Source: Oscillospiraceae bacterium
Lineage (GTDB): Bacteria > Bacillota > Clostridia > Oscillospirales > SIG530
Reading direction: 5' to 3'
NCBI GenBank assembly: GCA_015067075.1
Contig: SVND01000004.1
Location: forward strand, 2 to 64,001
DNA: 64,000 nucleotides
Below are positions 14,708-63,481 of the stretch, piece by piece. Made by a program: the position numbers and the translations under genes. The stretch's first letter is position 1. Each line of letters opens with the position of its first letter. Under the pieces are notes generated by a model. The model was not told the DNA's origin. It saw only the letters and a list, made by a program, of their open reading frames with translations, and did not search any database.

Positions 14708-16345
14708 CTAATTCGCCATTTTATTACTCTTTGCTCTATTGCATTTCCAACATAATGTTTGAAGGTTATCTTCTATTGTACAGCCACCTTTTGATACAGG
14801 CACAATATGGTCTATCTCCAATAGTAAGTTTGGTTCTGCATGAATAGAATTTCCACAAATACGACATGTGAAATCGTCGCGTTTTTTGACAAATTCACGA
14901 AGTTTATTTGTCATTAACGCTCTTTGTTCTTTTGTAAAATCACTTGCGGTAAATTTCTCCTCTAACGCTTTAATTAACTCTACTATAGATTCCTCGGTCA
15001 TTGGTACAGTAAATTTTCTCTTTGCCTTTCCGCCACTAGAAGTATAGGAAAATGTATATTCTACCACAAGTACACTTTCATCAATATTCGCAAACCCTAA
15101 TCTTGAATAGAAACCTGCTTCATCTTCCTCCATAACATAATCCGGAACATCATTAATATACTGTTGATACTCTTTTTTGTAGTTTTCAATAATTTCCTTT
15201 GCTTCTTTTAATGTAGCAAGTTCTTCTATAAGTAAATGCAGTTTTTGTATTTGTTCAGGATATATGTTTTTGTTAGGGTAAAAGTTTTTTATTACATAAT
15301 CAAGCGGATTATTTTCCGCGCTTGCGAATACGGTAGCTGACACTTCTGCCATAAAAGGATTAATTGTCTTTTTGTACGGACGAATATACTGGTATTCATC
15401 TTCATTAATTGTTTCGTTTCGAACAACTCTTGTTCCAAAAAGTTGTGAAATGGATTCCACTTTCTCTGTTATGTATTCATTAAATTCTCTTTGCGTACTC
15501 ATTAACACTTCGCAGGTTTCTTTTATTTTAAAAAATGCAGGAGAATCATAGTAATCAAGAATTCTTTGATTACTATCAACAATCTTCGTTATTTCTTGCT
15601 CAATATGCGCTACAAATTTATTAATAATCTCCCATTCTTCGCTATTTATATCCTTTATTTTTTTGATGCTATTAACCGTTCTATCAAACAACTGCATAAT
15701 TAAATTATCCAATTGTTCTACGCTACCTTTTATAAACAAAAGTTTTCTGTTCTCATTTGCATAATCTATAATCTTGTTTACATTCTCATAATATTTATGT
15801 TGTTTTTGATTCAATGCTTCTTTTTCTTGTTCTTTCAGGTACTTATTTAATTCTCCTTTCCCCATAAGTAATGCTGGGTCTTCATCAAACTTATCTATGT
15901 CATATTGGCTTAATCTGATTATTCTTGTACCCAAGTTATTTCCAGCAGAGGATATATACGTAACACAAATTCTGTAAGCCTTTGCATTTCTAATAGTTGT
16001 ATTAATATTTTCTGCAAGTTTATTATATTGCGAATGCCCCTTATATTCATTATTGCTGAGAAAATGGCTTAAAATATTTGCAACTTCATTTTTTCTTTGT
16101 ATAATTTTCTTCGCCTGAACAAGCTTTTCTTTGTTTTCTTTAAAAAATTTTATGTCGTCGTATTTCTCCAACGCTTGACGACTTTTTACAATTACATTCG
16201 CATCAATATCAGAAACAATATTCCAACTTGAAAAACCTAATTTTCTTAACACTTCAGCGTCTAATTCTTTGTACTTCTTTTCGTTAATGGATTTAGTTAC
16301 TACAATTATCACAACAACTACAGCTATAATCACTAATAACGGCAT
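14708..16345 (-). CDS. membrane-anchored protein with a C-terminal HNH endonuclease domain (middle region unassigned)
   Basis: 545 aa from ATG 16345, which lies 7 nt after AGGAGG. N-terminal TM helix PLLVIIAVVVVIIVV, then about 440 aa of K/E/N-rich, helical-looking sequence. C-terminus CRICG..EIDHIVPVSKGGCTIEDNLQTLCWKCNRAKSNK has the CxxC..CxxC pairs and HNH residues. The gene is very AT-rich. Confidence 0.8.
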   Translation of the reverse strand: MPLLVIIAVVVVIIVVTKSINEKKYKELDAEVLRKLGFSSWNIVSDIDANVIVKSRQALEKYDDIKFFKENKEKLVQAKKIIQRKNEVANILSHFLSNNEYKGHSQYNKLAENINTTIRNAKAYRICVTYISSAGNNLGTRIIRLSQYDIDKFDEDPALLMGKGELNKYLKEQEKEALNQKQHKYYENVNKIIDYANENRKLLFIKGSVEQLDNLIMQLFDRTVNSIKKIKDINSEEWEIINKFVAHIEQEITKIVDSNQRILDYYDSPAFFKIKETCEVLMSTQREFNEYITEKVESISQLFGTRVVRNETINEDEYQYIRPYKKTINPFMAEVSATVFASAENNPLDYVIKNFYPNKNIYPEQIQKLHLLIEELATLKEAKEIIENYKKEYQQYINDVPDYVMEEDEAGFYSRLGFANIDESVLVVEYTFSYTSSGGKAKRKFTVPMTEESIVELIKALEEKFTASDFTKEQRALMTNKLREFVKKRDDFTCRICGNSIHAEPNLLLEIDHIVPVSKGGCTIEDNLQTLCWKCNRAKSNKMAN

Positions 16346-16424
16346 AGTTATCCTCCTTTTTAAACGCATTTTCATAAAAAACATTACGCTATTAATCTAC
16401 ACAATTTTCAAAAATCGCTCTTTT

Positions 16425-16758: not shown

Positions 16759-19700
16759 TTGAATAAAATTTTGCGCGCAGGTGCTCTTTTATTATGCACC
16801 CTTTTTATTGCTTTTTTACTTCCCATGCCTGTTTTTGCCACAGCATCGCAGACGCTTTCAAAGCTCACTCTGCAAAGCAGTACGCAGCCTAACTCCGCTT
16901 CCAATCCGTATCTTATAAAAACGGTTGCGGAGCTTAAGACCATAGGCTCTGCTCTTTCAAGCGGTGAAAGCTTCGCAGGCGTTTATTTCAAGCTCAGCAA
17001 CGACATAGCTCTCGCCGAGCGCGCATGGACTCCCATCGGCGCTGAAAAGCCCTTTGACGGCTTTTTCGACGGCGGCGGAAACACCGTTACAGGTCTCAAC
17101 GTCAAAAACCATGCCTTTGGCGGTCTTTTTGGCATGCTTGCAAGCGGTGCATCCGTTTCAAACCTCAACGTTGAAGGCACCGTCACCGCTGACTCCTCCC
17201 TTGAAAAAGTCGCTTTAGGAGGTATCGCAGGCGCTTCCACAGGCGCTTCCGTTTACAACTGCTCCTTTAGCGGTACTGTTACGGGCGAAGCATCCGACAT
17301 AAGCTACTGCGCAGGCATCGTCGGCAACGCCGTTACAAGTTCGGTTACAAATTGCTCCGCAAAGGGTACTATCACAGCGCGCGGCGGCTACAGCGCAAAC
17401 GTTGCCGCAGGTATAGCTGCAATGTCTTCCTCCTCCATATCCTCCTGTGAAAACAACGCCTCCATCGTCGCTGACGGAAACGGAAACGTAGCAGGCGGCG
17501 GTATTGCCGCTCTCTGCTCCGCAGGCTCTGTACGCGCTTGCTATAACGGCGGCAGCGTCACAGCTACAGTTTCAAGCTCGTCCAACCCCTCTCGCAGCTC
17601 TTATGCAGGCGGTATCGTCGGCTTTTCCGACAACTGCACGGTTTCAGAAAGCAAAAACTCCGCGCCCATCAAGGCAACGCTTTCCGATTCCTCCTCTGCC
17701 ACAACGCCCAGCACAGCGGCTTGCGGCGGCATTGTCGGTCTCGGCAGACGCACAAGTGTTCTCACCTGCTCAAACAGCGCTGATATAACAGCTTCCAATC
17801 CCAACAGCAATGCTGCTCTTTCTTCCGCTTCCTGCGCCGGCGGTATCGTCGGCACATCACAGGGCGGCGGCGCCATAAAAAACTGCTCCAACACGGGTAA
17901 CGTCGGCGCTTACGGCAGTCTTTCCACCGTTTCAGGCACTAACCACGCAGGAGGTATCGTAGGCGACCTCGACGCTTCCCTTTACAACTCCTACAGCACA
18001 GGAAACGTCACATCACGCGGCGGCAAGGAAAGCTATGCAGGCGGCATCGCTTCCCATGTAACAGGCACCGTCGAAAACTGCTACAGCGCAGGCACTGTCA
18101 CTGCATCAGAATCTAACGATTACCTTTCCGATGCCCTTGTTGCAAAATCCACGGGCACTGTAAGATACTGCTATTGGAGAAAAACAGATAACAGCACAAG
18201 CTTTTATCAGAATTGCGGCTTCTATTCCGCAGACCTTTCTTTGTCAACTGTCAGCAACACACCCGTTATCGTATCGGGGACAGCCTGTTCTACTGTAGTA
18301 CAAGCCCTCAATACCTGGGTAAACAATAATTCAGACAATACATATTTCGGCTGGGGCGTTTCTTCCTCGCAAAACGGCGGAAATCCCGTCATGTCCCATT
18401 ACAAGATCACCTGCGCTGATATAGAAAACGGTACGCTCTCCTTTAATCGCACAGTTGCAAACGAGGGCGACGTTATCGAGATCACCGTGACGCCCAACAG
18501 CGGTTACTCTCTCGCACCTAACTCCCTTACCTTCAACGGTACGGCTGTGGCTATTAAAAACGGAGTTTACACCTTCATCATGCCCGACAAGGATGTTACG
18601 GTTTTCGCGTCCTTTATCCGTACGGCATCACCCATCTATACAATATCCTCAAACGCTGTTCACGGCTCGCTCATTCCCAACGTAGCTTCCGCTGAACAAG
18701 GCGCTAAAATTACAGTTTCCGTAAACCCCGAAAGCAATTTCAAGCTCGTAGAGGGCTCACTTAAATATAACGACAAGGAAATTCTTAACGTCAACGGTCA
18801 GTACACCTTCACAATGCCCGCAGAGCACGTTGTTCTTACGGCAGATTTCGCTGAGGTAACGCCTGTTGCCCGTCCCATTACCATTGCTTCCATGACGAAC
18901 GGAACTATTATCCCCTCTTCTGCTTCCGCTACAAACGGCTCCGTCGTCACGCTTACGGCAAAGCCTGACAGCGGATACAGATTGAAGGAGGGCTCGTTCA
19001 AAGTGGATGGCAAAGTCCTTACCGCTGTAAACGGTGTTTACTCATTCACCATGGGCTACAACGCCGTAACAGTAACAGCAGAATTTGAGCTTGCTCCCGT
19101 TACGTCCCGTCCCATCACCATCGCCAAAACGGAAAACGGTTCAATTGAGGTCGTTTTCGACGCCGCCGCTAAAGGTACGGTCGTTACAGGCGACATACTC
19201 CCTGCAGACGGCTATCAGCTTGTGGAAGGCTCTCTTGCATATAACGGAATACCTGCAGAGGTATCAGGCACGACCTTCCGTTTTACGATGCCTGACGAGG
19301 CTGTAACTATTACAGCGCAGTTTGAGCTTATTCCGCCTGCAGTCTACGCCATAACCGTTTCTCCGACTATCGCCAACGGCAAGGTTACAGTTGATTTTGA
19401 ATCTGCTCAGGCAGGCGAGATAGTTACGATAACCGTCATTTGCGCCGAGGGCTACAGACTTCAGAACGGTTCACTCAGATGCAACGGCACACAGTACATC
19501 GTTGCAGAGGACGGAACGTGCAAATTTGCAATGCCTGAAGAAGATGTTTTCATCAGCGCCACCTTTGAAGCTTTCGTGGAACAGGAAACCTATTACAACA
19601 TTCATATCGTTGATGATATTCCCAACGGCTTGATAACAGCAAGCGCATCATCTGCAGTCGAAGGCGCGACCATCACAGTTTTCGTCTTCCCTGACGACGG

Positions 19701-20184
19701 ATTTTCCCTTAAAAACGGCACGCTTAAATACAATTCTACTGCTATCTCCCGTATAAACGGTCAGTTTGAATTCGTCATGCCTGCATCTGACGTTACGCTT
19801 TCCGCTATTTTCGAGCGCGCAGGCACGGCTACTGAAATATTTACTATCACTGCATCTGCGCAGGAAGGCGGTAATATTCTTCCCCACGGTGCAGTTGATG
19901 CCGTACAAGGCTATGACAAAGGCTTTGCCATAACTCCCAACATGGGATACTCCATAAGAGACGTTCTCGTTGACGGTGTCAGCATCGGTGCTGTCAGCGT
20001 TTACACCTTCGAAGACGTTATGGGCGATCACACCATAGAAGCTTTCTTTGTTCCCGTTACAAATGAACGTGCGGACAATGCCCCGAATATGGTGCTTCTC
20101 ATAATCATTGCCATTGCAATAGCGTTCGTCGGAGCGCTTATCGTAAGCATTTCCATCTTCCTTATCCGCAGACGGCAGAAATAA
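16759..20184 (+). CDS. large cell-surface protein: signal peptide, GLUG-like repeat region, seven tandem InlB-B-repeat-like domains, C-terminal TM anchor
   Basis: 1141 aa. Signal peptide ALLLCTLFIAFLLPMPVFA. At least 9 G-G-I-(V/A)-G motifs spaced 25-45 aa apart. Seven ~80-aa repeats follow the pattern NG.(I/L)....A..G..V.(I/L)T..P..GY.L..GSL..NG......NG.Y.F.MP...V...A.F. The tail is MVLLIIIAIAIAFVGALIVSISIFLIRRRQK. Confidence 0.85.
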   Translation: MNKILRAGALLLCTLFIAFLLPMPVFATASQTLSKLTLQSSTQPNSASNPYLIKTVAELKTIGSALSSGESFAGVYFKLSNDIALAERAWTPIGAEKPFDGFFDGGGNTVTGLNVKNHAFGGLFGMLASGASVSNLNVEGTVTADSSLEKVALGGIAGASTGASVYNCSFSGTVTGEASDISYCAGIVGNAVTSSVTNCSAKGTITARGGYSANVAAGIAAMSSSSISSCENNASIVADGNGNVAGGGIAALCSAGSVRACYNGGSVTATVSSSSNPSRSSYAGGIVGFSDNCTVSESKNSAPIKATLSDSSSATTPSTAACGGIVGLGRRTSVLTCSNSADITASNPNSNAALSSASCAGGIVGTSQGGGAIKNCSNTGNVGAYGSLSTVSGTNHAGGIVGDLDASLYNSYSTGNVTSRGGKESYAGGIASHVTGTVENCYSAGTVTASESNDYLSDALVAKSTGTVRYCYWRKTDNSTSFYQNCGFYSADLSLSTVSNTPVIVSGTACSTVVQALNTWVNNNSDNTYFGWGVSSSQNGGNPVMSHYKITCADIENGTLSFNRTVANEGDVIEITVTPNSGYSLAPNSLTFNGTAVAIKNGVYTFIMPDKDVTVFASFIRTASPIYTISSNAVHGSLIPNVASAEQGAKITVSVNPESNFKLVEGSLKYNDKEILNVNGQYTFTMPAEHVVLTADFAEVTPVARPITIASMTNGTIIPSSASATNGSVVTLTAKPDSGYRLKEGSFKVDGKVLTAVNGVYSFTMGYNAVTVTAEFELAPVTSRPITIAKTENGSIEVVFDAAAKGTVVTGDILPADGYQLVEGSLAYNGIPAEVSGTTFRFTMPDEAVTITAQFELIPPAVYAITVSPTIANGKVTVDFESAQAGEIVTITVICAEGYRLQNGSLRCNGTQYIVAEDGTCKFAMPEEDVFISATFEAFVEQETYYNIHIVDDIPNGLITASASSAVEGATITVFVFPDDGFSLKNGTLKYNSTAISRINGQFEFVMPASDVTLSAIFERAGTATEIFTITASAQEGGNILPHGAVDAVQGYDKGFAITPNMGYSIRDVLVDGVSIGAVSVYTFEDVMGDHTIEAFFVPVTNERADNAPNMVLLIIIAIAIAFVGALIVSISIFLIRRRQK
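18400..20060 (+). repeat. seven tandem, divergent ~240-nt coding repeats inside the surface-protein gene
   Basis: The protein-level periodicity is listed in the CDS entry. Nucleotide identity between units is low, so these are old duplications. Confidence 0.7.
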
Positions 20185-30498: not shown

Positions 30499-33400
30499 TT
30501 ATACCTCTACGCTTCCTTCGTATACCTTCTTTGCGTCGCCTGTCATATAGACAGTTTCATCGGTATATCTTACTGTCAGCGTACCGCCGAGAAGCGTTAC
30601 CTTTATATCGGAATCCTTTTGGCAAATTCCGTTCAGGACAGCCGCAACTGCCGCCGCACAAGCACCAGTGCCGCAGGCAAGCGTTTCACCGTTGCCGCGC
30701 TCCCATACGCGCATCTTTATGGAATTCTCCCCTGTTTTCTTTACAAATTCCGTATTCACTCTTTCGGGGAACAGCGGATTTGTCTCAAACTTAGGTCCGA
30801 GCGTTTCTATGTCAAGATTGTCAACGTCGTCGCAGAAAACTACGCAATGGGGATTGCCCATGGAAACACAGGTTATGTTATAGATATTGCCGTCGATCTC
30901 AATGGGCTTATCTATTACATTTTCAAAGGGAAGCAAAATGGGAATCTGCTCAGAAGCAAGCTCCGCCTTGCCCATATCGACCTTTACACGGGAAACCTTT
31001 CCGTCCTTCGTATAAAGATGAAGCTTTTTCGGGCCGCTCATGGTGTCGATGACCATATCTGTCTTCTTAACGATATCGTTATCGTACAGATACTTCGCCA
31101 CACAGCGGATGGCATTTCCGCACATCTTGCCTTCGCTTCCATCAAGATTGAACATCTTCATTTTTGCATCAGCCGTTTCAGAGGGGCAGATAAGCACGAC
31201 ACCGTCGCCGCCGATGCTGTAATGTCTGTCGGAAAGGAGAATGCACAGCGATTCGGGCATTTTCGTTTCCTTCTGAAGATTGTCAATATAGATATTATCG
31301 TTTCCGCAGCCCTGCATCTTGATAAAATCTATCTTGAGCTTTTCCTTGCGCATATCGTTTATATCCACAAGCTCTGTGTTGATCTCGCTGTAGCGGCTCA
31401 TAAGACTTTCCGCAACGGCATTCGCCGTATCTATAGCCGTAAGGCACGGGATGCCGAGCATATTAGCCTTGCGGCGGATCTTAACGCTGTCACGGCGTGG
31501 GTCACGTCCCTTTGCAGAGGTGGAAATGATATAGTCGACCTTTCGGCTTTCCAAAAGTGTCATTGTATTATTTTGCGGATTTTCATGGATCTTGCCTACC
31601 TCGCGAGTCTTATATCCCGCTCTGCGAAGCACTTCTGCTGTACCCTTTGTTGCGTAAAGCTTAAAGCCCATATCGGCAAATTTCTTAACGATATCTGTAA
31701 TTTCAGCTTTATCGCTGTTTCTTACCGATACGAAAACGCCGCCCTTTTTGCCCATAAGGCACTTTGATGCGATAAGTCCCTTATACATGGCTTCCTGAAG
31801 GTTCTTACCGATACCGAGCACTTCGCCTGTAGACTTCATTTCGGGGCCCAGCTGTGTATCAACGTCGGTAAGCTTTTCAAAGGAGAATACGGGCACCTTG
31901 ACAGCCGTATACGGGGATGTCTTATATATACCCGAGCCAAATCCGAGGTCACGCAAACGCTCACCAAGACTTACTCTTACGGCAAGGTCACACATAGGTA
32001 CACCCGTTACCTTGGAAAGATAGGGCACCGTACGCGATGCACGGGGATTTACCTCGATAACGTAGATCTCATTATCTTTTACGATATACTGAATATTTAC
32101 AAGTCCGATCGCCTTAAGACCTGAACAAAGAGATTTCGTTATAACCTCAATCCTTGCCGCAAGCTCATCGTCCACATTCGGTGCGGGATATACTGCAATA
32201 CTGTCGCCGGAATGGATGCCTGTTCTTTCGATATGCTCCATAACGCCGGGAATAAGTATATCTGTTCCGTCGCAGATAGCGTCAACCTCTATTTCAACAC
32301 CGCTGATGTATTTGTCAATGAGAACGGGGTTTTCCTGCTTCTGACGAAGGATTATCTCCATATATTCGCGGATATCGTCTTCATTGTAGGCGATTATCAT
32401 GTTCTGACCGCCGAGAACGTATGAAGGACGCATAAGCACGGGATAGCCAAGACGCTGTGCCGCTTCAAGAGCTTCGTCGCACGTCATAACTGTGGAACCG
32501 CGAGGTCTGTTGATGGATAGAAGCTCCAAAAGCTTGTCAAAGCGCTCTCTGTCTTCAGCCATATCTATGCTGTCTGCGCTCGTTCCGATAATGGGAATGC
32601 TGTTTTTATGAAGCTGCTTCGTAAGCTTGATGGCAGTCTGTCCGCCGAAGGCAACCACAACGCCGATGGGCTTTTCAAGCTTGATTATCTCTAAAACATC
32701 TTCGGGGCAAAGGGGCTCAAAATAGAGCTTGTCCGCCGTGTCAAAGTCGGTGGAAACCGTTTCGGGGTTGTTATTTATTATAATAACCTCATAGCCCATT
32801 TTCTTAAGCGTCCATACGCAATGAACGCTGGCGTAGTCAAATTCGATACCCTGACCGATTCTGATAGGTCCTGAGCCCAAAACAACTACGCGGGGCTTTT
32901 TGACTTCGCCTGTAAGATGATGGGCTTCGTTTTCGCCGCCGTGCTCCGCTTCGCAGTAGGAAGCATAGAAATAAGGAGTTACTGCAGGGAATTCACCTGC
33001 GCAGGTGTCAACCATTTTATATATGGGAGACAAATGGTAAGGTATTTTTTCGCCGCTTATGCGCTCGATAGCCGCGTCGGAATAACCCAGCTTTTTGCAT
33101 TCGCTGTAAAGCTCGTAGGATATATTACCCTGCGCCATAAGGCGTTCATGATATGCAAGGTTTTCGAGCTTATGTAAAAACCAAGGTGTTATTTTTGTTA
33201 CATCGTATATTTCATCAATGGAAAAGCCTCTGACGATGGCTTCATATACAACGAAAAGGCGCTCGTCAGTTTTGTCGTGAAGCTTTTCACGAATTTCTTC
33301 GTCCGAAAGCTTTTTAAGCTTCGGCATATTGAGCGTGTCCAAGGATATTTCAGCGCCGCGAACTGCCTTCATAAGTGCCTGTTCAAAGCTGTCCGCAATG

Positions 33401-34551
33401 GACATGACCTCGCCCGTCGCCTTCATCTGTGTGCCAAGGTCGCGCTTAGCGTATACGAATTTATCAAAGGGCCACTTGGGGAATTTGCAAGCGATATAGT
33501 CGATAGCAGGCTCAAACGCCGCATACGTTACGCCTGTAACGGCGTTTTTGATCTCATCAAGAGTATATCCGAGAGCGATCTTCGTTGCAACCTTTGCAAT
33601 GGGATAGCCCGTTGCCTTTGATGCAAGGGCGGAAGAACGGGATACACGGGGGTTAACCTCGATTACAGCGTATTCAAGGCTGTTAGGCTTAAGAGCAAAC
33701 TGGCAGTTGCAACCGCCTTCAACGCCAAGCTCGTGGATAATATCCAAAGCCGCTGTACGAAGCATCTGATATTCTGTATCAGTAAGGGAAACTGTGGGCG
33801 CGACAACGATACTATCGCCCGTATGCACGCCGACGGGGTCTAAGTTTTCCATGGAGCAAATGGTGATAGCGTTGTCCTTGCTGTCACGCATTACTTCAAA
33901 CTCGATTTCCTTCCAGCCTGCGATGCAAAGCTCAATAAGTATCTGATTTATGGGAGATGCCGCAATACCGCCGCGGGCGATCTCTTTAAGCTCCTGTTCA
34001 TTTTCGGCAATACCGCCGCCTGTGCCGCCGAGTGTAAATGCGGGACGAACGATTACGGGATAGCCGATCTCAGCGGCAAATTCAAGAGCCGACTGAACGT
34101 CGCTTACGACCTCAGAGGGTACGCAGGGCTGATTTATCTTCTCCATCGTCTGCTTGAAGATAAGTCTGTCCTCAGCTTTATCAATAGTCTCAGGCGAAGC
34201 GCCGAGAAGCTGTATACCGTGCTTTTCCAAAAAGCCTTCCTTGGCAAGCTGCATGCAAAGAGTAAGACCTGTCTGACCGCCGAGGCCCGAAAGGATGCTG
34301 TCGGGCTTTTCCTTTTCGATAATGCGCTTTACCGTTGTAAGTGTAAGGGGTTCAATATAGATATGATCTGCCATGGCGTTGTCCGTCATGATAGTTGCAG
34401 GGTTGGAGTTTATGAGTACGACCTCAATATCGTCCTCCTTGAGGGCACGCAAAGCCTGTGTGCCGGCGTAGTCAAACTCAGCCGCCTGACCGATAACGAT
34501 AGGGCCTGAGCCGATGAGCAAAACTTTTTTGATATTACTTTTAAGCGGCAT
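30499..34551 (-). CDS. carB: carbamoyl-phosphate synthase large subunit fused in frame to diaminopimelate epimerase (CarB-DapF)
   Basis: 1350-aa ORF. Residues 1 to ~1065 are CarB: two ATP-grasp halves (GPIVIGQAAEFDYAGTQA and GPIRIGQGIEFDYASVH) and an MGS-like tail. Residues ~1070-1350 are DapF: KIDFIKMQGCGNDN, NLDGSEGKMCGNAIRC, GNPHCVVF, ERGNGETLACGTGACA. No stop codon lies between them (junction near 31345). Confidence 0.88.
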   Translation of the reverse strand: MPLKSNIKKVLLIGSGPIVIGQAAEFDYAGTQALRALKEDDIEVVLINSNPATIMTDNAMADHIYIEPLTLTTVKRIIEKEKPDSILSGLGGQTGLTLCMQLAKEGFLEKHGIQLLGASPETIDKAEDRLIFKQTMEKINQPCVPSEVVSDVQSALEFAAEIGYPVIVRPAFTLGGTGGGIAENEQELKEIARGGIAASPINQILIELCIAGWKEIEFEVMRDSKDNAITICSMENLDPVGVHTGDSIVVAPTVSLTDTEYQMLRTAALDIIHELGVEGGCNCQFALKPNSLEYAVIEVNPRVSRSSALASKATGYPIAKVATKIALGYTLDEIKNAVTGVTYAAFEPAIDYIACKFPKWPFDKFVYAKRDLGTQMKATGEVMSIADSFEQALMKAVRGAEISLDTLNMPKLKKLSDEEIREKLHDKTDERLFVVYEAIVRGFSIDEIYDVTKITPWFLHKLENLAYHERLMAQGNISYELYSECKKLGYSDAAIERISGEKIPYHLSPIYKMVDTCAGEFPAVTPYFYASYCEAEHGGENEAHHLTGEVKKPRVVVLGSGPIRIGQGIEFDYASVHCVWTLKKMGYEVIIINNNPETVSTDFDTADKLYFEPLCPEDVLEIIKLEKPIGVVVAFGGQTAIKLTKQLHKNSIPIIGTSADSIDMAEDRERFDKLLELLSINRPRGSTVMTCDEALEAAQRLGYPVLMRPSYVLGGQNMIIAYNEDDIREYMEIILRQKQENPVLIDKYISGVEIEVDAICDGTDILIPGVMEHIERTGIHSGDSIAVYPAPNVDDELAARIEVITKSLCSGLKAIGLVNIQYIVKDNEIYVIEVNPRASRTVPYLSKVTGVPMCDLAVRVSLGERLRDLGFGSGIYKTSPYTAVKVPVFSFEKLTDVDTQLGPEMKSTGEVLGIGKNLQEAMYKGLIASKCLMGKKGGVFVSVRNSDKAEITDIVKKFADMGFKLYATKGTAEVLRRAGYKTREVGKIHENPQNNTMTLLESRKVDYIISTSAKGRDPRRDSVKIRRKANMLGIPCLTAIDTANAVAESLMSRYSEINTELVDINDMRKEKLKIDFIKMQGCGNDNIYIDNLQKETKMPESLCILLSDRHYSIGGDGVVLICPSETADAKMKMFNLDGSEGKMCGNAIRCVAKYLYDNDIVKKTDMVIDTMSGPKKLHLYTKDGKVSRVKVDMGKAELASEQIPILLPFENVIDKPIEIDGNIYNITCVSMGNPHCVVFCDDVDNLDIETLGPKFETNPLFPERVNTEFVKKTGENSIKMRVWERGNGETLACGTGACAAAVAAVLNGICQKDSDIKVTLLGGTLTVRYTDETVYMTGDAKKVYEGSVEV

Positions 34552-35642: not shown

Positions 35643-36023
35643 ATCCCATCTTCCTTTCGTTTCTCATCTATATATAAAAGATTATTTTAAACAAATATAT
35701 TTAATTATGAATGAAAACAAAAGCTTTGTCAAGGGTTTTTCTTAAAAAAAAGAACATATCGTAAAATAACGATACATTCTCAAATTAAATCACAAAAACA
35801 CATAGACAATATTTCATTTTTCATCATTGTAAAATCGGAAAACGAAAGAGAAAAATGCTCCGACGAAACACTTGCCGCAGAAAAAGAATTGCTTCCGCTT
35901 TTGCAAACCGACATCATATGAGCACCTCCGTTTTTGTATCCAATCTTGTGCAAATCCGCACTTTCTAATCCGATATTATACTACACTTTTTTTCTTTTGT
36001 CAACAATTTTTTTCAGCTTTTAA

Positions 36024-36060
36024 GAAAAAAACGGCAGAGAACCTTACATTCTCCGCCGTT
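36024..36060 (-). terminator. intrinsic terminator after the VanY-like gene
   Basis: Minus strand: AACGGCGGAGA, 9-nt loop, TCTCTGCCGTT, then TTTTTTT. Confidence 0.75.
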
Positions 36061-36065
36061 TTACA

Positions 36066-36819
36066 TTATTGTGCAGTTACAATCTGATACAGATACTCTT
36101 CAAGGCAAAGTCCGCTTTCGTAGATAGCCTTTGCGTTTTCAACTCCAACATAGCGGAAATGCCACGGCTCATATATTATTTTCGTTAACACCGTTTTGTT
36201 ATCGGGATAACGAAGTATAAAGCCGTATTTCCAGCTGTTTTCCGCAAGCCATTTACCCTCCGCTGTTTTCTCAAAACCGCTTGTCGTTCCCGACGGTCCG
36301 ACTATATCAATGGCAAGTCCCATCTGATGCTCGCTTGTGTTTGGTATGGCAACGGACATTGCGGCAATGGCTTTTATCTCTTCCTCCGTCTTACTCGAGC
36401 CGTATTTTGAACTCAGCTGCGAGACCTTATTTTCAAACAGCTGTACTTGCTTTTCATAGGTACGGAAGGTGCTTGTTATTTGCGGTTTAAGCCCCTTCGC
36501 CTTCATCGCGTCAAGCATTTCCCTCGCAGCTTTCGCCGCGTTTGGCTCCATTTTATAGGAGGTGTTTTTTCTTGACCACTTCAGGCGCTACGTAATCGTC
36601 AGGCAAGGGATTATCCACATTTACAAGGCGCAGATACGTATCGTCAAAATATCTGTAATTGCGCTTGTAGTAGATCTCCTGCTCCTGCACCGTTTCAGGC
36701 TGGGCGGCGCTCTCCGTTTGTGCTTTTACTTCAAAAGTGTATGTGTTCTTGGACTGTAGTGGAAGCATTGCAAGTGCAAGCACAAACACTACAGCCGTTA
36801 CAGATAATATACGTTTCAT
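36066..36819 (-). pseudogene. VanY/M15B-type D-alanyl-D-alanine carboxypeptidase, split by a frameshift in an A-run
   Basis: The upstream ORF (36553-36819) has a signal peptide and LVNVDNPLPDDYVAP. The downstream ORF (36066-36551) has SEHQMGLAIDI and EPWHFRYVG. The break is at AAGAAAAAAC (about 36564-36573); removing one A joins the frames as VVKKNTSYKMEPNAAKA. Confidence 0.8.
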
Positions 36820-36855
36820 TTGTTTTTCACTTCTGTTATTTTTTCTCGATATGTT

Positions 36856-38742
36856 TTATTCTTTTTTTGTAATTTTTATTTTTCCGTCTTCCATTGAATA
36901 CGAACATAAGTAAAGTTCTGTTTCCCATGTTACGCTATCACACACCGCATAAAAGATCACATTATCACTCGCCATCACATATACTCCGTATCCATTAACA
37001 GTAAATTCAACATGTACAGGTTTATTGCGTGCAATTATCTCGCCGTTTTTATCCATAAATACAGCTTGATGTTTAAAATAGCCTTTGTCTTCCACATAAA
37101 TGCCATCATTAAGAATAAAGCAATCCAAGTTCCTTACGTAATGGAAGCTGAAAGGAAACTCAAAAAAGACATCGCTTTTCTCATTAAAAATTTTCTCATC
37201 CAAAAGCACCGCTGTCTTTTTCTGCTCAGTAAGGTCATACAAATAAAAGGAGCTATTTTTAGCATCAAAGCATGCAATCTCTGTTTCAGAAATAAACTCT
37301 ATCTTACAGTTTTTGGAGAAAGACGCTTCAAAAATGCACTTTCCATTTCCCTTTATATCCAAAATCTGATAAGTAGTCTCATTTTGTATACTCTTCTTTT
37401 GAAGCAAGTATGAACCGCCGGGACTTAATTGTGTCACATTATTTACCGGGAAAGCATGGGGCAAATATTCCTCCCGCAATGTGTCATCATCAATATCCAG
37501 AACCTCACTTTTTTTAACGTCAAGCAATTTGATCTTTGTTTTTCCGTCAACAACGGCAGTTACAAACGCCAAATCATTCTTGTTCTCGTCGGGAGCATCA
37601 CCATTCGGTAAGTAATCCGCAACTATTGTAACAAGACCGTATTTTTCAAGAGATCTATATTGATAGGTGACAGTCGATCCATCGTCCGTATGAGTGACTG
37701 ATACATGAATTGAACGAAGAAGCTTTTTTCCGTCGGTATCACTTGTAACGATGGAAAAATCGGTCCCCTTTTCCGTTCCCAGTAAAATATTTTTTTCGTA
37801 CAGATAACCCCAAGCTATAATTTCATTTTCTAGCAGTTCTACCGCATCATATATGAATGTACCGTTTTCTCTGTTATAGATATCAAGTGTATTCCTACCA
37901 CCGTTAACGAAGAAAAAGCAGTCAGCAGTCAACGAACCGTAAAACTGAACTTGTGTCAGATTATCACATAAATACTCAATACTACTTGCTACATTCGTGT
38001 TATCCGACAGCTTGCAGATATCCAACGTATAGTCTTCATTTTGAATAACAACTAACTTGCCATCTGAGGTAATACCGTTTGTCTCACTAAACGGATACAC
38101 ATCGGTATAGCGGACGAAAGAAAACAATTCTTCTTGCTTATTCAGCAACTGCTCATTGGACATTTCAGAAAAGATAGAACTAACAATAAGCCCTATGGTT
38201 GACAATCCTACTATTGCACCAATCACGACAGCGAGTACAACGCAAAGAATCAACCGTTTTGAAGATTTTTTTGCAGATGTTTTGCTTTCAATCGGCTTAA
38301 TCTCCGGTTTTGGATTTGGCTTTGACGCTGAAGCCGAAGTCGTTATTCCGAGCAAGCTTACCATATGCTCAGACAACTGAAACAGCGCTTTGTCCATCGA
38401 CTGTGTCGCGGCATCATGCCAATGATAAGGCATCAGATAAAAACTCATTTGATTATTCATCTGTGTATCGTCAATACGAAACGGTACTATATTGCATCGG
38501 CAGTCTACAGCATTTGTTATCTCTGAAAGAACATGGGGAGAACTGTTGGAATCCTTTGAAAAAATAATGATAAACGCCTTAGCCTTATGTATGGCATCAA
38601 TGATAGAGTCCGCCCAAACTTCACCGCTTTTAATATTTCGTTTGGCATACCAGCATCTGATCCCTTTGCTTTCCAAATGCTCACAAATCTTTTTTGCCAC
38701 ATCAATATCAGCGTGAGAATAGCTTATAAATACATCATGCAT
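36856..38742 (-). CDS. TIR domain, single TM helix and a large beta-rich C-terminal domain of unknown family
   Basis: 628 aa from ATG 38742, with GAGGGA 5-6 nt upstream. TIR signature DVFISYSHADIDVAKKICEHLESKGIRCWYAKRNIKSGEVWADSIIDAIHKAKAFIIIFSKDSNSSPHVLSEITNAV..IVPFRID. K/P/S linker, TM LILCVVLAVVIGAIVGLSTIGLIVSSIF, then about 420 aa unassigned. AT-rich gene. Confidence 0.8.
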   Translation of the reverse strand: MHDVFISYSHADIDVAKKICEHLESKGIRCWYAKRNIKSGEVWADSIIDAIHKAKAFIIIFSKDSNSSPHVLSEITNAVDCRCNIVPFRIDDTQMNNQMSFYLMPYHWHDAATQSMDKALFQLSEHMVSLLGITTSASASKPNPKPEIKPIESKTSAKKSSKRLILCVVLAVVIGAIVGLSTIGLIVSSIFSEMSNEQLLNKQEELFSFVRYTDVYPFSETNGITSDGKLVVIQNEDYTLDICKLSDNTNVASSIEYLCDNLTQVQFYGSLTADCFFFVNGGRNTLDIYNRENGTFIYDAVELLENEIIAWGYLYEKNILLGTEKGTDFSIVTSDTDGKKLLRSIHVSVTHTDDGSTVTYQYRSLEKYGLVTIVADYLPNGDAPDENKNDLAFVTAVVDGKTKIKLLDVKKSEVLDIDDDTLREEYLPHAFPVNNVTQLSPGGSYLLQKKSIQNETTYQILDIKGNGKCIFEASFSKNCKIEFISETEIACFDAKNSSFYLYDLTEQKKTAVLLDEKIFNEKSDVFFEFPFSFHYVRNLDCFILNDGIYVEDKGYFKHQAVFMDKNGEIIARNKPVHVEFTVNGYGVYVMASDNVIFYAVCDSVTWETELYLCSYSMEDGKIKITKKE

Positions 38743-38834
38743 TTTACGTCCCTCTCTTTTAAGACAATCATTTTTTCGCTTAAATCGGTGGTTTCGCATA
38801 GTTCTTACTAAGTTCAGCACTAAGTAAATATCAT

Positions 38835-40931
38835 TTACCTTACGCCAAACAGCAAATCTCCGTAAGACGGATAAGGCCAATATTTTTCCGCAGTTATGGT
38901 TTCCGCTTTATCTGCCGCGGTGCGCAGACTGTTCATGCACAATATGACCTCGTCGCGGTATGCGCAGGAAAGCTGTGCAACGTCGACGATGCTTTTCACC
39001 CTCTGCATCGCTTCCTCAAGCTCCTTGACACTGCTGTGCATCTTCGCCGTAAGCTCCGAAAGCTCGCTTATGCGCTCCTGCTCGTATGTGCAGTCTATCT
39101 GCGGCATAGCGGCTTTTTTCTCCGTAACAGCTCTTGCTACGTCCGCCGTATAAGCCGATACGGCAGGTAATATCTGGCGCTTTGCCATTTCAAGCATCGT
39201 TCGCGCTTCGATATTGAGTATCTTACAGTAATTATCGAGAAGTATCTCATAGCGAGCCTTCGCTTCCGTTGCGGAATATATACGGTGTCTTTCAAAAAGC
39301 TCGATATTTTTCTGCTTTATAAGGTAAGGCAGGCAGTCGGGCGTTGTGGGCAGATTGAGAAGTCCGCGTTTTTCAGTTGCTTCCTCTATCCATGCGTCGT
39401 CGTATCCGTTGCCGTTGAAGATAATACGCTTATGCTCGCGGATAACGCTTCTTATAAGCTCGTGAAGCGCCGTATTAAAATCCTCTGCCGCTTCAAGCTT
39501 ATCAGCATACTGTCTTAAGGACTCCGCAACAGTTGTATTGAGCATAATATTTGCGCAGGAAATTCCGTTTGACGAGCCGAGCATACGGAATTCAAACTTA
39601 TTTCCTGTAAAAGCAAAGGGCGATGTGCGGTTGCGGTCCGTCGTATCCTTCGGAAAGCGCGGAAGCACATGGACACCAAGCTTCATCTGCGTTTTTTCAA
39701 GGGCGTTATAAGGCTCGTCCTTTTCGATAGCATCTAAAATAGCCGTAAGCTCGTCGCCTAAAAATACGGAAACTACTGCAGGCGGAGCTTCATTTGCACC
39801 AAGTCTGTGGTCGTTGCCTGCCGTAGCAACGGAAAGGCGAAGCAAGTCCTGATAATCGTCAACTGCCTGAATAACGGCGCAAAGTATGAGTAAAAACTGA
39901 GCGTTTTCATAGGGCGTCTCGCCCGGTGAAAGAAGATTTACTCCCGTATTTGTGGACATCGACCAGTTATTATGCTTGCCTGAACCGTTGACACCCTTAA
40001 AGGGCTTTTCATGAAGCAAGCAGACAAGACCGTGCTTTGCGGCAAGCTGCTGCATTATTTCCATTGTAAGCTGATTATGGTCAGCGGCAATATTTGTGGT
40101 AGAATAAATCGGCGCAAGCTCATGCTGGGCAGGTGCCGCCTCATTATGCTCCGTTTTCGCAAGTATGCCAAGCTTCCAAAGCTCCTCGTCAAGCTCCGTC
40201 ATAAACGCCGCAACACGAGGCTTTATCGTACCGAAATAATGGTCCTCAAGCTGCTGTCCCTTCGGCGGATTTGAGCCGAAAAGCGTTCTGCCCGTATAAA
40301 TAAGGTCCTTGCGCTTATTGTACATTTCACGGTCAACAAGAAAATATTCCTGCTCAGCGCCCACGGATGTGTTTACACATTTTACGTCGTCATGACCGAA
40401 AAGCTTCAAAATTCGCATCGCCTGACGATTTATGGCTTCCATGGAGCGAAGAAGAGGGGTTTTTCTGTCAAGCGCTTCGCCGCCGTAGGAGCAAAACGCC
40501 GTGGGAATGCAAAGAGTTTTCCCCTTGATAAACGCATAGGAGGTTGGGTCCCACGCCGTGTATCCGCGCGCTTCAAAGGTTGCGCGAAGTCCGCCTGAGG
40601 GAAAGCTCGACGCATCGGATTCGCCGCGTACAAGCTCCTTGCCTGAAAACTCCATTATTATTTTGCCGTCGCCGACGGGAGAGATAAAGCTGTCGTGCTT
40701 TTCCGCGGAAATGCCTGTCAGCGGCTGAAACCAATGGGTATAATGCGTTGCACCCTTTTCAACAGCCCAATCCTTCATGGCGTTTGCAACGATATTGGCA
40801 ACTGTCAGGTCAAGGCGCTTGCCCTCATCTATGGTTTCACGAAGTGATCTATACGTTTCGGCAGGCAAACGTGATCTCATTGCGCTATCGCCGAAAACCA
40901 TACAACCGAAATATTCCGATAATTGTTTCAT
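38835..40931 (-). CDS. glnN: glutamine synthetase type III
   Basis: 698 aa. The size and N-terminus ([21 protein letters not shown]) are typical of GSIII. Core motifs [14 protein letters not shown] and [10 protein letters not shown]. Confidence 0.88.
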
Positions 40932-61026: not shown

Positions 61027-62069
61027 GTATATATATGTATACAATCATGCTCTATATTATATGTATTAAAATAATTATTTTCAAGCGGTATCCATTCGTC
61101 GCGAAATCTTTTCCAAAGCTTTTCTCCGCTCCTCTTTTTTATGCGCCTTTCCTGCGTCATGGGCGAGGTTTCCATAAAAAGCTTTACGTCGTAGACATCC
61201 CCAAAGACAGGGTGCATACTGTATACGCCCTCCAAAAGCGTAAGCCGTTTTTTCTCCTGTGCTTCATATTCTCCAAGCTTTTGTGTTTGGCAATCAAATT
61301 TCGCCGTTTCGTATTCAAAGGGCGCATTCAGCTTATCAATTATTTCCGTCTTTATGCGCTCGTAGTCAACGTTGCCGCCCGCCTGCGCCAAGCGCGCCTT
61401 CGTTTTTCTCTCCGACGGCAAAAAGTAATCGTCGGTATGAAAAATATTGCAATCGTATATTTGACAAAGCACTTGCGCAAAGCTACTTTTACCGCTGGCG
61501 CTCATTCCGTCTATAGCCATGGCGAAAAACATTTTCCGCGTTCTGTACATAGCTTCAACGGCGCAAAACACCTCAAAAAACTCCGCAAAGACCTCACTTA
61601 CCACTCTATAATGGGGTTCGTAGCTTTTTCTATAGCCCTCGCTATGCGCCACCGGCAAGCTCTGCGTCAGCTTTGCAAGCTCATTTTCATCAATTTCAGC
61701 ATCTATATCGCCGTTTTTGCACATACTCAAAAGCACATTGAGCTTTATTTTAAAACCGAGCTCTGTGCCCCGTGCTTTTTCCGCCGTATACATCATCATT
61801 TTAACTATAGTCGGTGCAGAAATACATCTTACTGCGGCGCTTTTTAAATTCATTCTGCAATGACCGCCGCCGATATACTCAAAGGGCTTTTCCTTTTCGT
61901 TCGCTTCGCACGAGGCAAGCTCATTTTCAAGCTGACGGAGCATTTTTTCCTCGTCATTTACCATGTGCTTACAGCCAAACTCGCTTTGGTACAAAAGCTT
62001 TACAAAATCAGCCGTTTCCATTTTCGGATACGCCGTATATGCAGTTTTTATTGCGCTTTTCACCGTCAT
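61023..62069 (-). CDS. two-domain protein: unknown N-terminal domain plus a uridine-kinase-like P-loop domain
   Basis: Start placed at ATG 62069, in an ATGA overlap with the WG-repeat gene. Walker A IDGMSASGKSS followed by HTDDYF. Confidence 0.6.
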   Translation of the reverse strand: MTVKSAIKTAYTAYPKMETADFVKLLYQSEFGCKHMVNDEEKMLRQLENELASCEANEKEKPFEYIGGGHCRMNLKSAAVRCISAPTIVKMMMYTAEKARGTELGFKIKLNVLLSMCKNGDIDAEIDENELAKLTQSLPVAHSEGYRKSYEPHYRVVSEVFAEFFEVFCAVEAMYRTRKMFFAMAIDGMSASGKSSFAQVLCQIYDCNIFHTDDYFLPSERKTKARLAQAGGNVDYERIKTEIIDKLNAPFEYETAKFDCQTQKLGEYEAQEKKRLTLLEGVYSMHPVFGDVYDVKLFMETSPMTQERRIKKRSGEKLWKRFRDEWIPLENNYFNTYNIEHDCIHIYT

Positions 62070-63481
62070 GGTCTTATTATCTCCAAAAAATCCTCGCTGA
62101 GCTGTTTGCCCTTTTTGTTTATCACGTAATAATCGCCGTTTTCGCACACCACAGCCTTGCCGTCCACGAAGGGCTCGGCGTGGGTGTATCTTGCCGTAAT
62201 AACAGGCTCACCTTTGTCATTGCAATAGCCGTAAAGTCCGTTTTGCTTGTAAATATATTTTATTTCGCCGCCGTCGCAAAGCAGCTCAAACTGCGGCGGA
62301 ATAATATATGCGCCCGCGTTATCCATAACGCCGTACTTTCCGTCGGCGCACACAGTCGCGCGCTTATTTTCAAAGGGTGTTGCATCGCCGTACATTGCAT
62401 CTATAACGGCGTTACCGTTTATATCGGTATAGCCTAAGCGTCCGCCATCCTCAAAAAGAGCAAGTCCGTCGTGGAAAATAAGCTCACGCTCAGATGCGAC
62501 GTTGCCTATCTGCGCGCCGATACCGTCAACCAAAAGCCACATTTCGCCGTCATATACGCAGTAAACGCCTTCTGCTACAGCGCGCGCACTGTAAAACACG
62601 GTGGCAGGTAAAAGCAGCTTGCCGCTTTTGTCGCAAAGCCCTGCCTTGTCGGAATTGTAGATGCAAAGCACGGACGGGTCATAATTTCCCTCGCCGTCAC
62701 TGTACGGCTCAATACCCGTATATTGCGGTGTTATCACCGTTTCGCCTTTGTCGTTTATAACGCCGACACTTCCGCCCAGCGTTACTGCTGCAAGCTCATT
62801 TTCCCAAAAATCAGATACGTCATCGTATTTGCACTCAATGACCGTCTTCCCTTTTTTATCAATAAAGCCCCATTTTCCGCCCAGCTTCACTGCCGCAAGC
62901 CCGTTTTTTGCAAAGGCACGGGCATTTTCAAAGCTGTGATCTGTCAGGGACTTGCCGTCAGTCTTGATAAATCTGTATTTACCGTCAGCCGACGTGACGG
63001 CAAAGCCGTCGGAAAAATCGGATGCCGTATCAAACTGAGGCGATATGGCATATGCGCCCCTCTTATTTATATAGCCCCATTTACTGCCCAAGCGCACAGG
63101 CGCAAGTCCCTCCGAAAAGTATCCCGTCTCGTGATACTGCGCGGCAATCAGCACCTCACCCTTGGTGGTTATCCATCCGTATCTGCCGTCAGCGCAAACC
63201 GAAACAGCGCCCTCCGACTCCTCTCCTATCTGCGAATATCGGGCATCGCACAGCTTTTTACCGTCGTCGGCAAGCAAGCCGTAAAGTCCGTTTTCCTTGT
63301 AGATAAGATAGGGCTTCGGTTTTGCCGCATTTATGGCAACGGCAAGCATTATCACAACCGCGATGAAAAGCAGCGCGGAAACAACTATTATCTGTTTGCG
63401 GCGCTTTTTCTGCTGAGCTTTACGGCGATTGAGCTTTATCTTAAGTTCTATTTCCTTCGGGGACCTTTCATATGCATCCAT
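62066..63481 (-). CDS. WG-repeat (KWG) protein with an N-terminal TM anchor
   Basis: 471 aa. TM IIVVSALLFIAVVIMLAVAI. At least 8 repeats of the type GKWGFIDKKGKTVI or SKWGYINKRGAYAI. Confidence 0.85.
   Translation of the reverse strand: MDAYERSPKEIELKIKLNRRKAQQKKRRKQIIVVSALLFIAVVIMLAVAINAAKPKPYLIYKENGLYGLLADDGKKLCDARYSQIGEESEGAVSVCADGRYGWITTKGEVLIAAQYHETGYFSEGLAPVRLGSKWGYINKRGAYAISPQFDTASDFSDGFAVTSADGKYRFIKTDGKSLTDHSFENARAFAKNGLAAVKLGGKWGFIDKKGKTVIECKYDDVSDFWENELAAVTLGGSVGVINDKGETVITPQYTGIEPYSDGEGNYDPSVLCIYNSDKAGLCDKSGKLLLPATVFYSARAVAEGVYCVYDGEMWLLVDGIGAQIGNVASERELIFHDGLALFEDGGRLGYTDINGNAVIDAMYGDATPFENKRATVCADGKYGVMDNAGAYIIPPQFELLCDGGEIKYIYKQNGLYGYCNDKGEPVITARYTHAEPFVDGKAVVCENGDYYVINKKGKQLSEDFLEIIRP

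Follow-up and report, generated by a model that had tools for sequence, protein, structure and literature searches.

The stretch of DNA analysed here (the window) comprises 64,000 nucleotides of contig SVND01000004.1 from the Oscillospiraceae assembly GCA_015067075.1. It represents core chromosome of an uncultured Clostridia lineage and harbors genes for FtsK, MutS2, Obg, a carB-dapF fusion, carA, a type III glutamine synthetase (glnN), tgt, an MBOAT protein and a Mur ligase. Between glnN and a gene for a VanY-type peptidase lies a gene whose product consists of an N-terminal TIR domain, a flexible linker, a single hydrophobic helix and a large C-terminal domain predicted to form a beta-propeller (Table 1). 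The corresponding open reading frame (ORF) ends at 36856, and its longest form begins with a TTG that is located within the preceding gene, glnN. As credible start we regard the ATG at 38742-38740, which results in a protein of 628 residues and in the same gene coordinates as in the prediction that had been made from the sequence beforehand (the original prediction).

Table 1. Features of the TIR gene and its downstream neighbor; positions are those of the window.
Feature	Position	Strand	Basis
Coding sequence for TIR domain, membrane helix and propeller; complete, 628 aa + stop	36856..38742	-	ORF listing, translation
Shine-Dalgarno-like GAGAGGG, 7-nt spacer to the ATG at 38742	38750..38756	-	read from sequence
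TIR domain, residues 1-135, predicted cytoplasmic	38338..38742	-	Pfam TIR_2, AlphaFold2 model, Foldseek
Glu74 codon, catalytic position of NADase TIR domains	38521..38523	-	alignment to RUN1/RPV1, TIR-STING
Lys/Pro/Ser-rich flexible linker, residues 136-163	38254..38337	-	composition; low confidence where the TIR model ends
One hydrophobic transmembrane helix, residues 164-192, including GAIVG	38167..38253	-	hydropathy
Predicted extracytoplasmic beta-propeller, 436 aa, about 8 blades, no Pfam family	36859..38166	-	AlphaFold2, Foldseek, profile
Downstream VanY-type (M15) peptidase, frameshifted near 36571	36066..36819	-	Pfam VanY, E = 4e-37
Terminator-like hairpin, 15-bp stem + T-run, after VanY	36028..36062	-	consensus scan

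Domain structure of the encoded protein

The N-terminal part of the protein was assigned to the Pfam family TIR_2 (PF13676) over residues 4-114 (E = 2.4e-23; 83.4 bits against a gathering cut-off of 28), followed by weaker matches to TIR, CAP12-PCTIR_TIR and ThsB_TIR. PADLOC and NCBIfam returned matches at the level of the TIR domain only (SAVED-TIR, TIR associated with prokaryotic Argonaute, ThsB and retron-TIR). An AlphaFold2 (AF2) model of residues 1-140, based on 29 subfamily sequences, displayed the flavodoxin-like alpha/beta fold of TIR domains with a mean predicted local distance difference test (pLDDT) of 90.5 and a predicted template modelling score (pTM) of 0.85; the BB-loop region appeared flexible, as pLDDT values were low for residues 31-50. 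When the model was searched against the PDB by Foldseek, 171 matches were obtained at E <= 1e-3, the best 50 of which were all TIR domains. The closest structures were SARM1, the plant proteins RPP1, RPS4, RPV1 and RUN1, the TIR-APAZ protein of SPARTA, and AbTir. The TIR domains of SARM1, of the plant TIR-type receptors with nucleotide-binding and leucine-rich-repeat parts (TNLs), of SPARTA and of AbTir cleave NAD+.

A sequence search against the PDB aligned 'HVLSEI' of the window protein with 'CLDEL' of RUN1/RPV1 and with 'SKFEM' of oyster TIR-STING, which places Glu74 at the catalytic position; we take this position to be the equivalent of E642 in SARM1 and E100 in RUN1. Glu74 is present in 29 of the 29 subfamily TIR domains aligned, and the other invariant residues of this alignment are F5, S7, S9, E24, C30, W31, R35, S68, P87 and D110. 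Judged from sequence and model, catalysis by the TIR domain of the window protein is likely. The BB-loop consensus of the subfamily (residues 29-40), 'RCWYAPRDIxPG', is similar to Box 2 (RDxxPG) of metazoans, a motif reported to be typically absent from prokaryotic TIR domains (PMC7075850). The window protein has diverged at this position and carries KRNIKSG, compared with PRDIxPG in the subfamily consensus.

The linker that follows the TIR domain contains eight Lys/Arg and two Asp/Glu residues. The adjoining hydrophobic segment spans 29 uncharged residues, reaches a Kyte-Doolittle maximum of 2.85 (averaged over 19 residues) and is the sole segment of the protein above 1.6. Eight Lys/Arg and two Asp/Glu are located within the 25 residues preceding the helix, two Lys/Arg and five Asp/Glu within the 25 residues thereafter. 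No signal peptide is present, and the first strand of the TIR domain starts right at the N-terminus of the protein. Given the missing signal peptide, the basic N-terminal flank and the acidic C-terminal flank, an N-in, C-out orientation is therefore predicted, i.e., a type II single-pass protein with the TIR domain inside and the propeller outside.

No family for the last 436 residues was found in Pfam, NCBIfam or PADLOC. Beyond residue 135, Pfam matches were all below the cut-off (E >= 0.05), and no match to WD40 or other propeller families occurred at E <= 1. The AF2 model of this ectodomain, based on an alignment of 17 sequences (A1), contained 32 strands (pLDDT 84.3, pTM 0.82), and all top Foldseek matches were beta-propellers (Dos1, COP1, WDR5, SCAP WD40, TolB, BamB and Lp49), at E-values of 1e-9 to 1e-7 and with low template modelling scores (TM-scores) of 0.3-0.47. 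The A1 profile, searched against the PDB, recognized WD40 blades at profile positions 233-309, with E of about 1e-4 for WDR5 and 1e-10 for the designed eight-bladed Tako8. The number of blades, about eight, is approximate, and closure of the propeller into a ring is presumed. Among relatives of the protein, single marginal matches to WD40-type Pfam families were obtained (E = 2e-3 to 9e-3).

Positions conserved in the propeller comprise a YP near its start, the motif 'EYxP' and a number of Phe, Tyr and Gly residues. Few residues are invariant (Y24, P25, Y234, F291, F327, Y343 and G375), all of which are aromatic, Pro or Gly, suggesting that the domain serves as a binding module rather than as an enzyme. 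According to the models, the propeller is a small new domain family of probably about eight blades for which Pfam holds no model. A descent from the DUF5050/LRP1-like (PF16472) ectodomain found in the nearest TIR-helix relatives was considered and rejected, as hhalign of alignment A1 against A3 resulted in a probability of 0.9% (E = 0.065).

The original prediction had proposed a TIR domain within the N-terminal ~135 residues with a Glu at the catalytic position of NADases, then a Lys/Pro/Ser-rich linker, one strong helix and ~420 beta-rich, propeller-like residues of no recognized family. It had further noted the lack of a signal peptide and placed the TIR domain in the cytoplasm and the large domain outside. 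All of these points were borne out, those on topology as a prediction with which the flanking charges agree.

Relatives of the protein and the wider class

Homologs of the ectodomain were searched by phmmer among 1.84 billion representative proteins, which yielded 20 proteins at E <= 1e-3. Within the propeller family (P0001, P0002 and P0016-P0033), 18 further proteins were matched at E-values between 1e-17 and 1e-4; the weakest match of the search was an unrelated TIR-NB-ARC-WD40 protein recognized via its WD40 repeats only. Apart from three fragments of 104-278 aa, the matched family members have a length of 580-681 aa and were matched in their C-terminal part. BLASTP of the ectodomain against P0002 gave E = 2e-14, and a second search using the ectodomain profile returned P0001 and P0002 only. 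Members start with a TIR domain containing 'DVFISYS', followed by a Pro/Lys-rich linker, one hydrophobic helix and the homologous propeller, and this architecture is kept across some 20 representative clusters at only 20-28% identity. In every full-length member except P0027 the helix is located at residues 137-211, and most full-length members display the same charge bias across it. Thus, the propeller family is rare and nearly all of its members share the same layout. One of them is labeled by NCBI as 'TIR domain-containing protein' only.

No relative of the whole protein (E <= 1e-3) was identified in 185,579 GTDB species representatives, and no TIR gene was found at any of 80 glnN loci of related genomes. 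The 90% cluster that contains the window protein also includes a protein of 496 aa (P0037) with the same helix and propeller, in which a short signal-peptide-like N-terminus (MRKFLIYVLVVFFVISAISLDVS...) takes the place of the TIR domain; it is either a natural TIR-less form or the product of a chimeric short contig.

The nearest full-length relatives by TIR domain and linker (38-48% identity) carry unrelated ectodomains behind the equivalent helix, namely BspA-type leucine-rich repeats (LRR_5), DUF5050 or rhodanese. One locus encodes two tandem TIR-helix-LRR paralogs (L003), which lends weak support to a role in conflict. To see the wider subfamily, JGI metagenomes were scanned for the motif [IV][RK]CW[YI]A[PK]R[DN], which returned at least 600 matches. 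Among the best 80 of these loci, about 45 of the 62 complete ORFs encode an N-terminal TIR domain that is followed by a single hydrophobic segment and by over 130 additional residues, and most of the truncated ORFs also show the helix. Pfam searches with 51 such C-terminal regions identified Sel1 (7), TPR (5), FGE-sulfatase (4), ankyrin (4), DUF5050 (3) and canonical WD40 (2); many of the regions had no Pfam match. A TIR domain plus helix therefore appears to serve as a chassis for interchangeable, mostly repeat-type C-terminal domains in a large bacterial class. That a constant TIR-helix module is combined with many unrelated repeat-type domains strengthens the interpretation as a receptor. 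In the literature searched, no description of a bacterial class consisting of TIR domain, membrane helix and ectodomain was found, which does not prove its absence.

TIR proteins of the same subfamily also occur in phages. Thirteen related phage contigs from IMG/VR (L176-L188) encode a stand-alone TIR protein of 180 aa (41% identical), which retains the WxxxE motif, i.e., a Trp four residues before the catalytic Glu, and ends in a SEC-C-type zinc motif (CPCGSGRKYKDCHG). A further contig labeled as viral (L175) encodes a protein of 491 aa in total with a TIR domain and one helix.

Genomic setting and strain comparison

The same gene order (tgt, glnN, TIR gene, VanY, carA, carB) is found in the sister assembly GCA_054267735.1, in which the ortholog of the TIR protein is 98% identical. 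The closest glnN within GTDB is 74% identical and belongs to Candidatus Merdivicinus faecavium, an Oscillospirales-like gut metagenome-assembled genome, the locus of which is not syntenic.

The VanY gene begins 36 nt after the TIR gene, and the gap contains no terminator-like site. A consensus scan revealed neither a promoter-like nor a convincing terminator-like site between glnN and the TIR gene, and the hairpin behind VanY likely represents the 3' end of the transcript. Judging from these signals, co-transcription of the TIR gene and VanY, possibly together with glnN, is plausible. VanY is split into an ORF of 88 aa with the signal-anchor part and an ORF of 161 aa with the catalytic part. 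The split is caused by a 2-bp deletion ('AT' beside an A-run) when compared with the sister assembly (98% identical), in which the gene is intact and encodes 251 aa; the split gene is either a pseudogene or an assembly error. The original prediction had proposed a VanY-type gene 36 nt downstream that could be linked to the TIR protein in function. The gene itself is present. The functional link was abandoned, as VanY is frameshifted in the window and adjacent to a TIR gene of this family only in this lineage, i.e., in the window and the sister assembly. At the loci of more distant members (L002, L085, L086, L087-89, L091, L092 and L094) no VanY gene is located beside the family gene, and the downstream genes at these loci are mutually dissimilar, so that no shared neighbor or conserved partner emerged.

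A known defense gene adjoins only one of the family loci examined. At this locus (L085:2306-4430), beside P0016, a second TIR-helix protein of 314 aa with an unrelated small C-terminal domain is encoded together with a UG26 defense reverse transcriptase (PADLOC, E = 9e-125). This neighborhood is weak support for a role in conflict.

The TIR gene has a guanine plus cytosine (G+C) content of 37.7% (37.0% at third codon positions), compared to 49.0% for glnN, 47.8-47.9% for carA and carB and 47.7% for tgt, with 52-55% at third codon positions of those genes. The flanking genes overall range from 46 to 49%, so the TIR gene lies 8-11 points lower. The original prediction had contrasted a low G+C content of the TIR gene with about 55% for glnN; the low value was confirmed, the value for glnN was too high, and the contrast is real and smaller than claimed. 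The drop weakly supports a role in conflict. A strong claim of horizontal transfer was softened, since the drop of 8-11 points occurs in the window and at L087 and members elsewhere follow the G+C content of their hosts. Other stretches of low G+C content are also present in the window. A phage or plasmid origin was tested by tblastn against phage and plasmid collections and not retained, as matches were limited to the level of the TIR domain.

Comparison with the sister strain revealed an unusual pattern of substitutions. The segment from VanY to the start of the TIR gene (within 36023-38873) contains no synonymous change, and within the TIR gene none of the six single-nucleotide polymorphisms is synonymous; all six are located in the ectodomain (residues 356-609). 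An indel of 24 nt occurs at 38163, just after the membrane helix, and the TIR domain is 100% identical. The flanking genes differ at 76 synonymous and 12 non-synonymous codons (Fisher p = 2.3e-5). These numbers point to a segment that was recently shared between the strains, after which the outer domain changed in amino-acid sequence, and they weakly support a role in conflict. As the numbers are small, diversifying selection on the ectodomain is a lead only.

Several further features of the window were recorded. Within the 3' part of glnN (39000-39250), 27 differences from the sister assembly occur in 250 nt, compared to 0-5 per 250 nt elsewhere, which looks like a short recombination tract. 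The carB product (1350 aa; 30499-34551, minus strand) consists of a carbamoyl-phosphate synthase large chain with a C-terminal DapF domain, an unusual fusion that is also present in the sister assembly. A perfect sigma-70 consensus (TTGACA, 17 nt, TATAAT) is located at 35975-36003 (minus strand), downstream of the VanY terminator, and a second terminator-like hairpin at 35750-35781 (minus strand), upstream of carA; the two might act as promoter and attenuator of the pyrimidine genes. The stretch of lowest G+C content in the window (about 31%) harbors an ORF of 558 aa (14708-16384, minus strand) with a C-terminal HNH nuclease domain, for which PADLOC gave weak matches to PtuB and to a restriction enzyme of type II; it may be a defense or mobile gene. 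Two large repeat proteins are encoded in addition, one of 1141 aa in which GLUG motifs occur together with six B-repeats of the InlB type (16759-20184, plus strand), the other of 471 aa with WG-containing beta repeats (62066-63481, minus strand).

Possible function and comparison with known systems

We tentatively favor an interpretation in which the protein is a combined sensor and effector working from the outside in, the clustering of which would activate NAD+ cleavage by the TIR domain; we consider its chances to be somewhat short of even. The propeller would bind a multivalent or polymeric ligand outside the cell, e.g., phage particles, fragments of the cell wall or some other surface structure, and ligand binding would cluster the receptors so that their TIR domains meet beneath the membrane. 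TIR NADases are activated by oligomerization. Self-association of the TIR domains could form a composite active site between subunits around Glu74, as in SARM1, AbTir, SPARTA and TIR-SAVED, by which NAD+ would be cleaved. The simplest output would be depletion of NAD+ and growth arrest of the affected cell, because no effector gene is conserved nearby; alternatively, a diffusible signal derived from ADP-ribose might act on an unlinked effector. The role of such a sensor would probably be defense. An extension of this idea to the whole class, which we regard as rather doubtful, is that these proteins represent true 'Toll-like' bacterial surface receptors, the swappable outer domains of which would detect phage or envelope attack before genome entry, with clustering switching on the cytoplasmic TIR NADase. 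If so, a single polypeptide would perform outside-in innate immune signaling.

A number of observations weigh against the sensor interpretation. With respect to catalysis, the Trp of the WxxxE motif is replaced by His70 in the window protein and by Gln, His or Asp in its relatives, although this Trp is common, not universal, among NAD+-cleaving TIR domains. The TIR domains of Toll-like receptors (TLRs) retain the same Glu yet are not NADases, and the Glu alone is therefore no proof of catalysis. With respect to topology, P0027 (582 aa), alone among the full-length members, lacks a hydrophobic helix to separate its TIR domain from the propeller-type domain and, if real, would represent a cytosolic version, and the broad metagenomic set of TIR proteins shows only a weak charge bias across the helix. 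With respect to defense, most family loci are single genes amid housekeeping genes and not defense islands, PADLOC recognized the window protein at the level of the TIR domain only, and all known family members come from uncultured Clostridia of gut and rumen. The substitution pattern between the strains is ambiguous as well, since six of six non-synonymous changes have a probability of about 0.18 under neutrality, relaxed constraint fits as well as positive selection, and the P0002 cluster shows no such concentration of non-synonymous changes. Finally, enzyme activity, topology and phenotype are predictions. The architecture is solid and the class appears to be large and uncharacterized; its function is what we infer.

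Among the alternatives, a non-immune envelope or surface receptor or adhesin fares best, although we deem it unlikely. The propeller would bind host, dietary or cell-wall glycans or another cell, and the TIR domain would act as a scaffold or produce a regulatory nucleotide for cell-wall homeostasis, aggregation or sporulation. This would fit the housekeeping neighbors, i.e., glnN and carAB at this locus and the his operon or groEL/fusA elsewhere, as well as the cell-wall enzymes near some loci (VanY here, Peptidase_M23 in L087). Sister proteins carry ectodomains (BspA-type LRR, DUF5050 and Sel1) of the kind that gut Firmicutes typically use as surface or binding modules, and the layout is that of receptor Ser/Thr kinases such as PknD and PrkC. 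However, the structural neighbors of the TIR domain are enzymatic or immune TIR domains without exception, and the Glu does not vary. The loci examined contain no conserved partner to take up a scaffold signal, and the patchy distribution, with the gene lacking from all GTDB representatives and glnN loci searched, is unusual for a housekeeping function. Even as an ordinary surface receptor or adhesin, the protein would still bring a TIR output domain into bacterial transmembrane signaling.

Less probable still is a Thoeris-like signal generator, i.e., a membrane-bound TIR protein that makes a cyclic ADP-ribose isomer for an effector encoded elsewhere. TIR domains are established to be able to produce signaling nucleotides, and weak matches of the ThsB type were obtained with Pfam ThsB_TIR (18.8 bits) and several PADLOC models; however, the Pfam score does not reach the curated cut-off (21.2 bits), and no ThsA-like gene (SIR2, Macro, SLOG) is located near the window gene or at any family locus examined. 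We attach similarly little probability to a wrong topology. The hydrophobic segment might serve as an oligomerization or peripheral anchor, leaving both domains cytosolic as in TIR-WD40 or TIR-TPR STAND-like sensors, or the TIR domain might be exported. Apart from P0027 and the weak charge bias in the metagenomic set, this would fit the many sister proteins that carry domains usually found in the cytosol of bacteria (WD40, TPR or ankyrin). On the other hand, 29 uncharged residues of such hydropathy are typical of a spanning helix, the segment recurs at this position in almost every relative, members of the propeller family show a strong charge bias, and export of a folded, charged N-terminal domain of 135 aa without a signal peptide is unlikely from established knowledge. 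Least probable is an accessory gene that was acquired recently, is subject to relaxed constraint and drifts to loss, without current function in this strain. This would explain the purely non-synonymous changes plus indel, the frameshifted VanY, the low G+C content and the TIR-less P0037, but does not fit with a frame that stays open over 628 codons of an AT-rich gene in several strains, with a TIR domain identical between strains and with an architecture conserved among such distant relatives.

Compared with known systems, the TIR domain is closest to the enzymatic ones, with the same fold (Foldseek probability 1.0; TM-score up to 0.81 for the SPARTA TIR and about 0.7 for SARM1) and with the Glu at the catalytic position. 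At the sequence level, identity amounts to only 15-22%, and His70 takes the place of the Trp. None of SARM1, the plant TNLs, AbTir, SPARTA and TIR-STING is known to be linked by a membrane helix to a domain outside the cytoplasm. They are activated by cytosolic cues, i.e., the ratio of nicotinamide mononucleotide to NAD, an effector-bound nucleotide-binding leucine-rich-repeat receptor, a guide-target duplex or cyclic nucleotides. To our knowledge, the characterized bacterial TIR systems (Thoeris, SPARTA, the TIR-SAVED and TIR-STING effectors of CBASS, retron-TIR and Pycsar TIR) all sense intracellular cues. Thoeris ThsB, a TIR protein of bacteria with a presumed sensor role, shares weak profile similarity, but is soluble, while the window gene is surrounded by glnN, VanY and carAB with no adjacent ThsA. 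Membership in Thoeris was rejected because of the ThsB_TIR score, PADLOC ThsB matches at E >= 8e-4 and the lack of an adjoining ThsA (SIR2/Macro + SLOG). The assignment to SPARTA or other short prokaryotic Argonaute systems with TIR-APAZ was also discarded, as PADLOC Aga_TIR covers the TIR part only (profile positions 6-132 of 430) and no Argonaute gene is in the neighborhood. The outer domain shares a common fold with WD40 and other propellers (WDR5, COP1, SCAP WD40, TolB, BamB and Lp49), but TM-scores are low and no significant Pfam match exists.

In layout, the protein is nearest to receptor kinases of the PknD type, with the TIR domain replacing the kinase and no sequence relationship. PknD of M. 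tuberculosis, with its beta-propeller, and PrkC/StkP, with their PASTA domains, have the catalytic domain at the N-terminus in the cytoplasm and, behind a single helix, a C-terminal sensor outside it. With Toll-like and IL-1 receptors the protein shares a repeat-type ectodomain, one helix and a TIR domain on the cytoplasmic side, and the class shares with them the combination of a constant TIR domain with variable ectodomains. It differs from TLRs in that the TIR domain comes first, in being of type II and not type I without a signal peptide, in its propeller instead of LRR or Ig domains (no LRR match), in the KRNIKSG that replaces Box 2, and in that no MyD88-like partner is evident. TLR TIR domains signal through adaptor TIR domains and not as NADases. 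Membership among the TLRs was rejected because of the inverted order, the missing signal peptide and the lack of LRRs. A TIR domain tethered by one helix to a variable outer binding domain would be a different sensing geometry, that of the animal Toll-like receptors, and raises the questions whether bacterial immunity, or TIR signaling in general, can be triggered from outside the membrane and whether the receptor logic of TLRs arose independently in bacteria.

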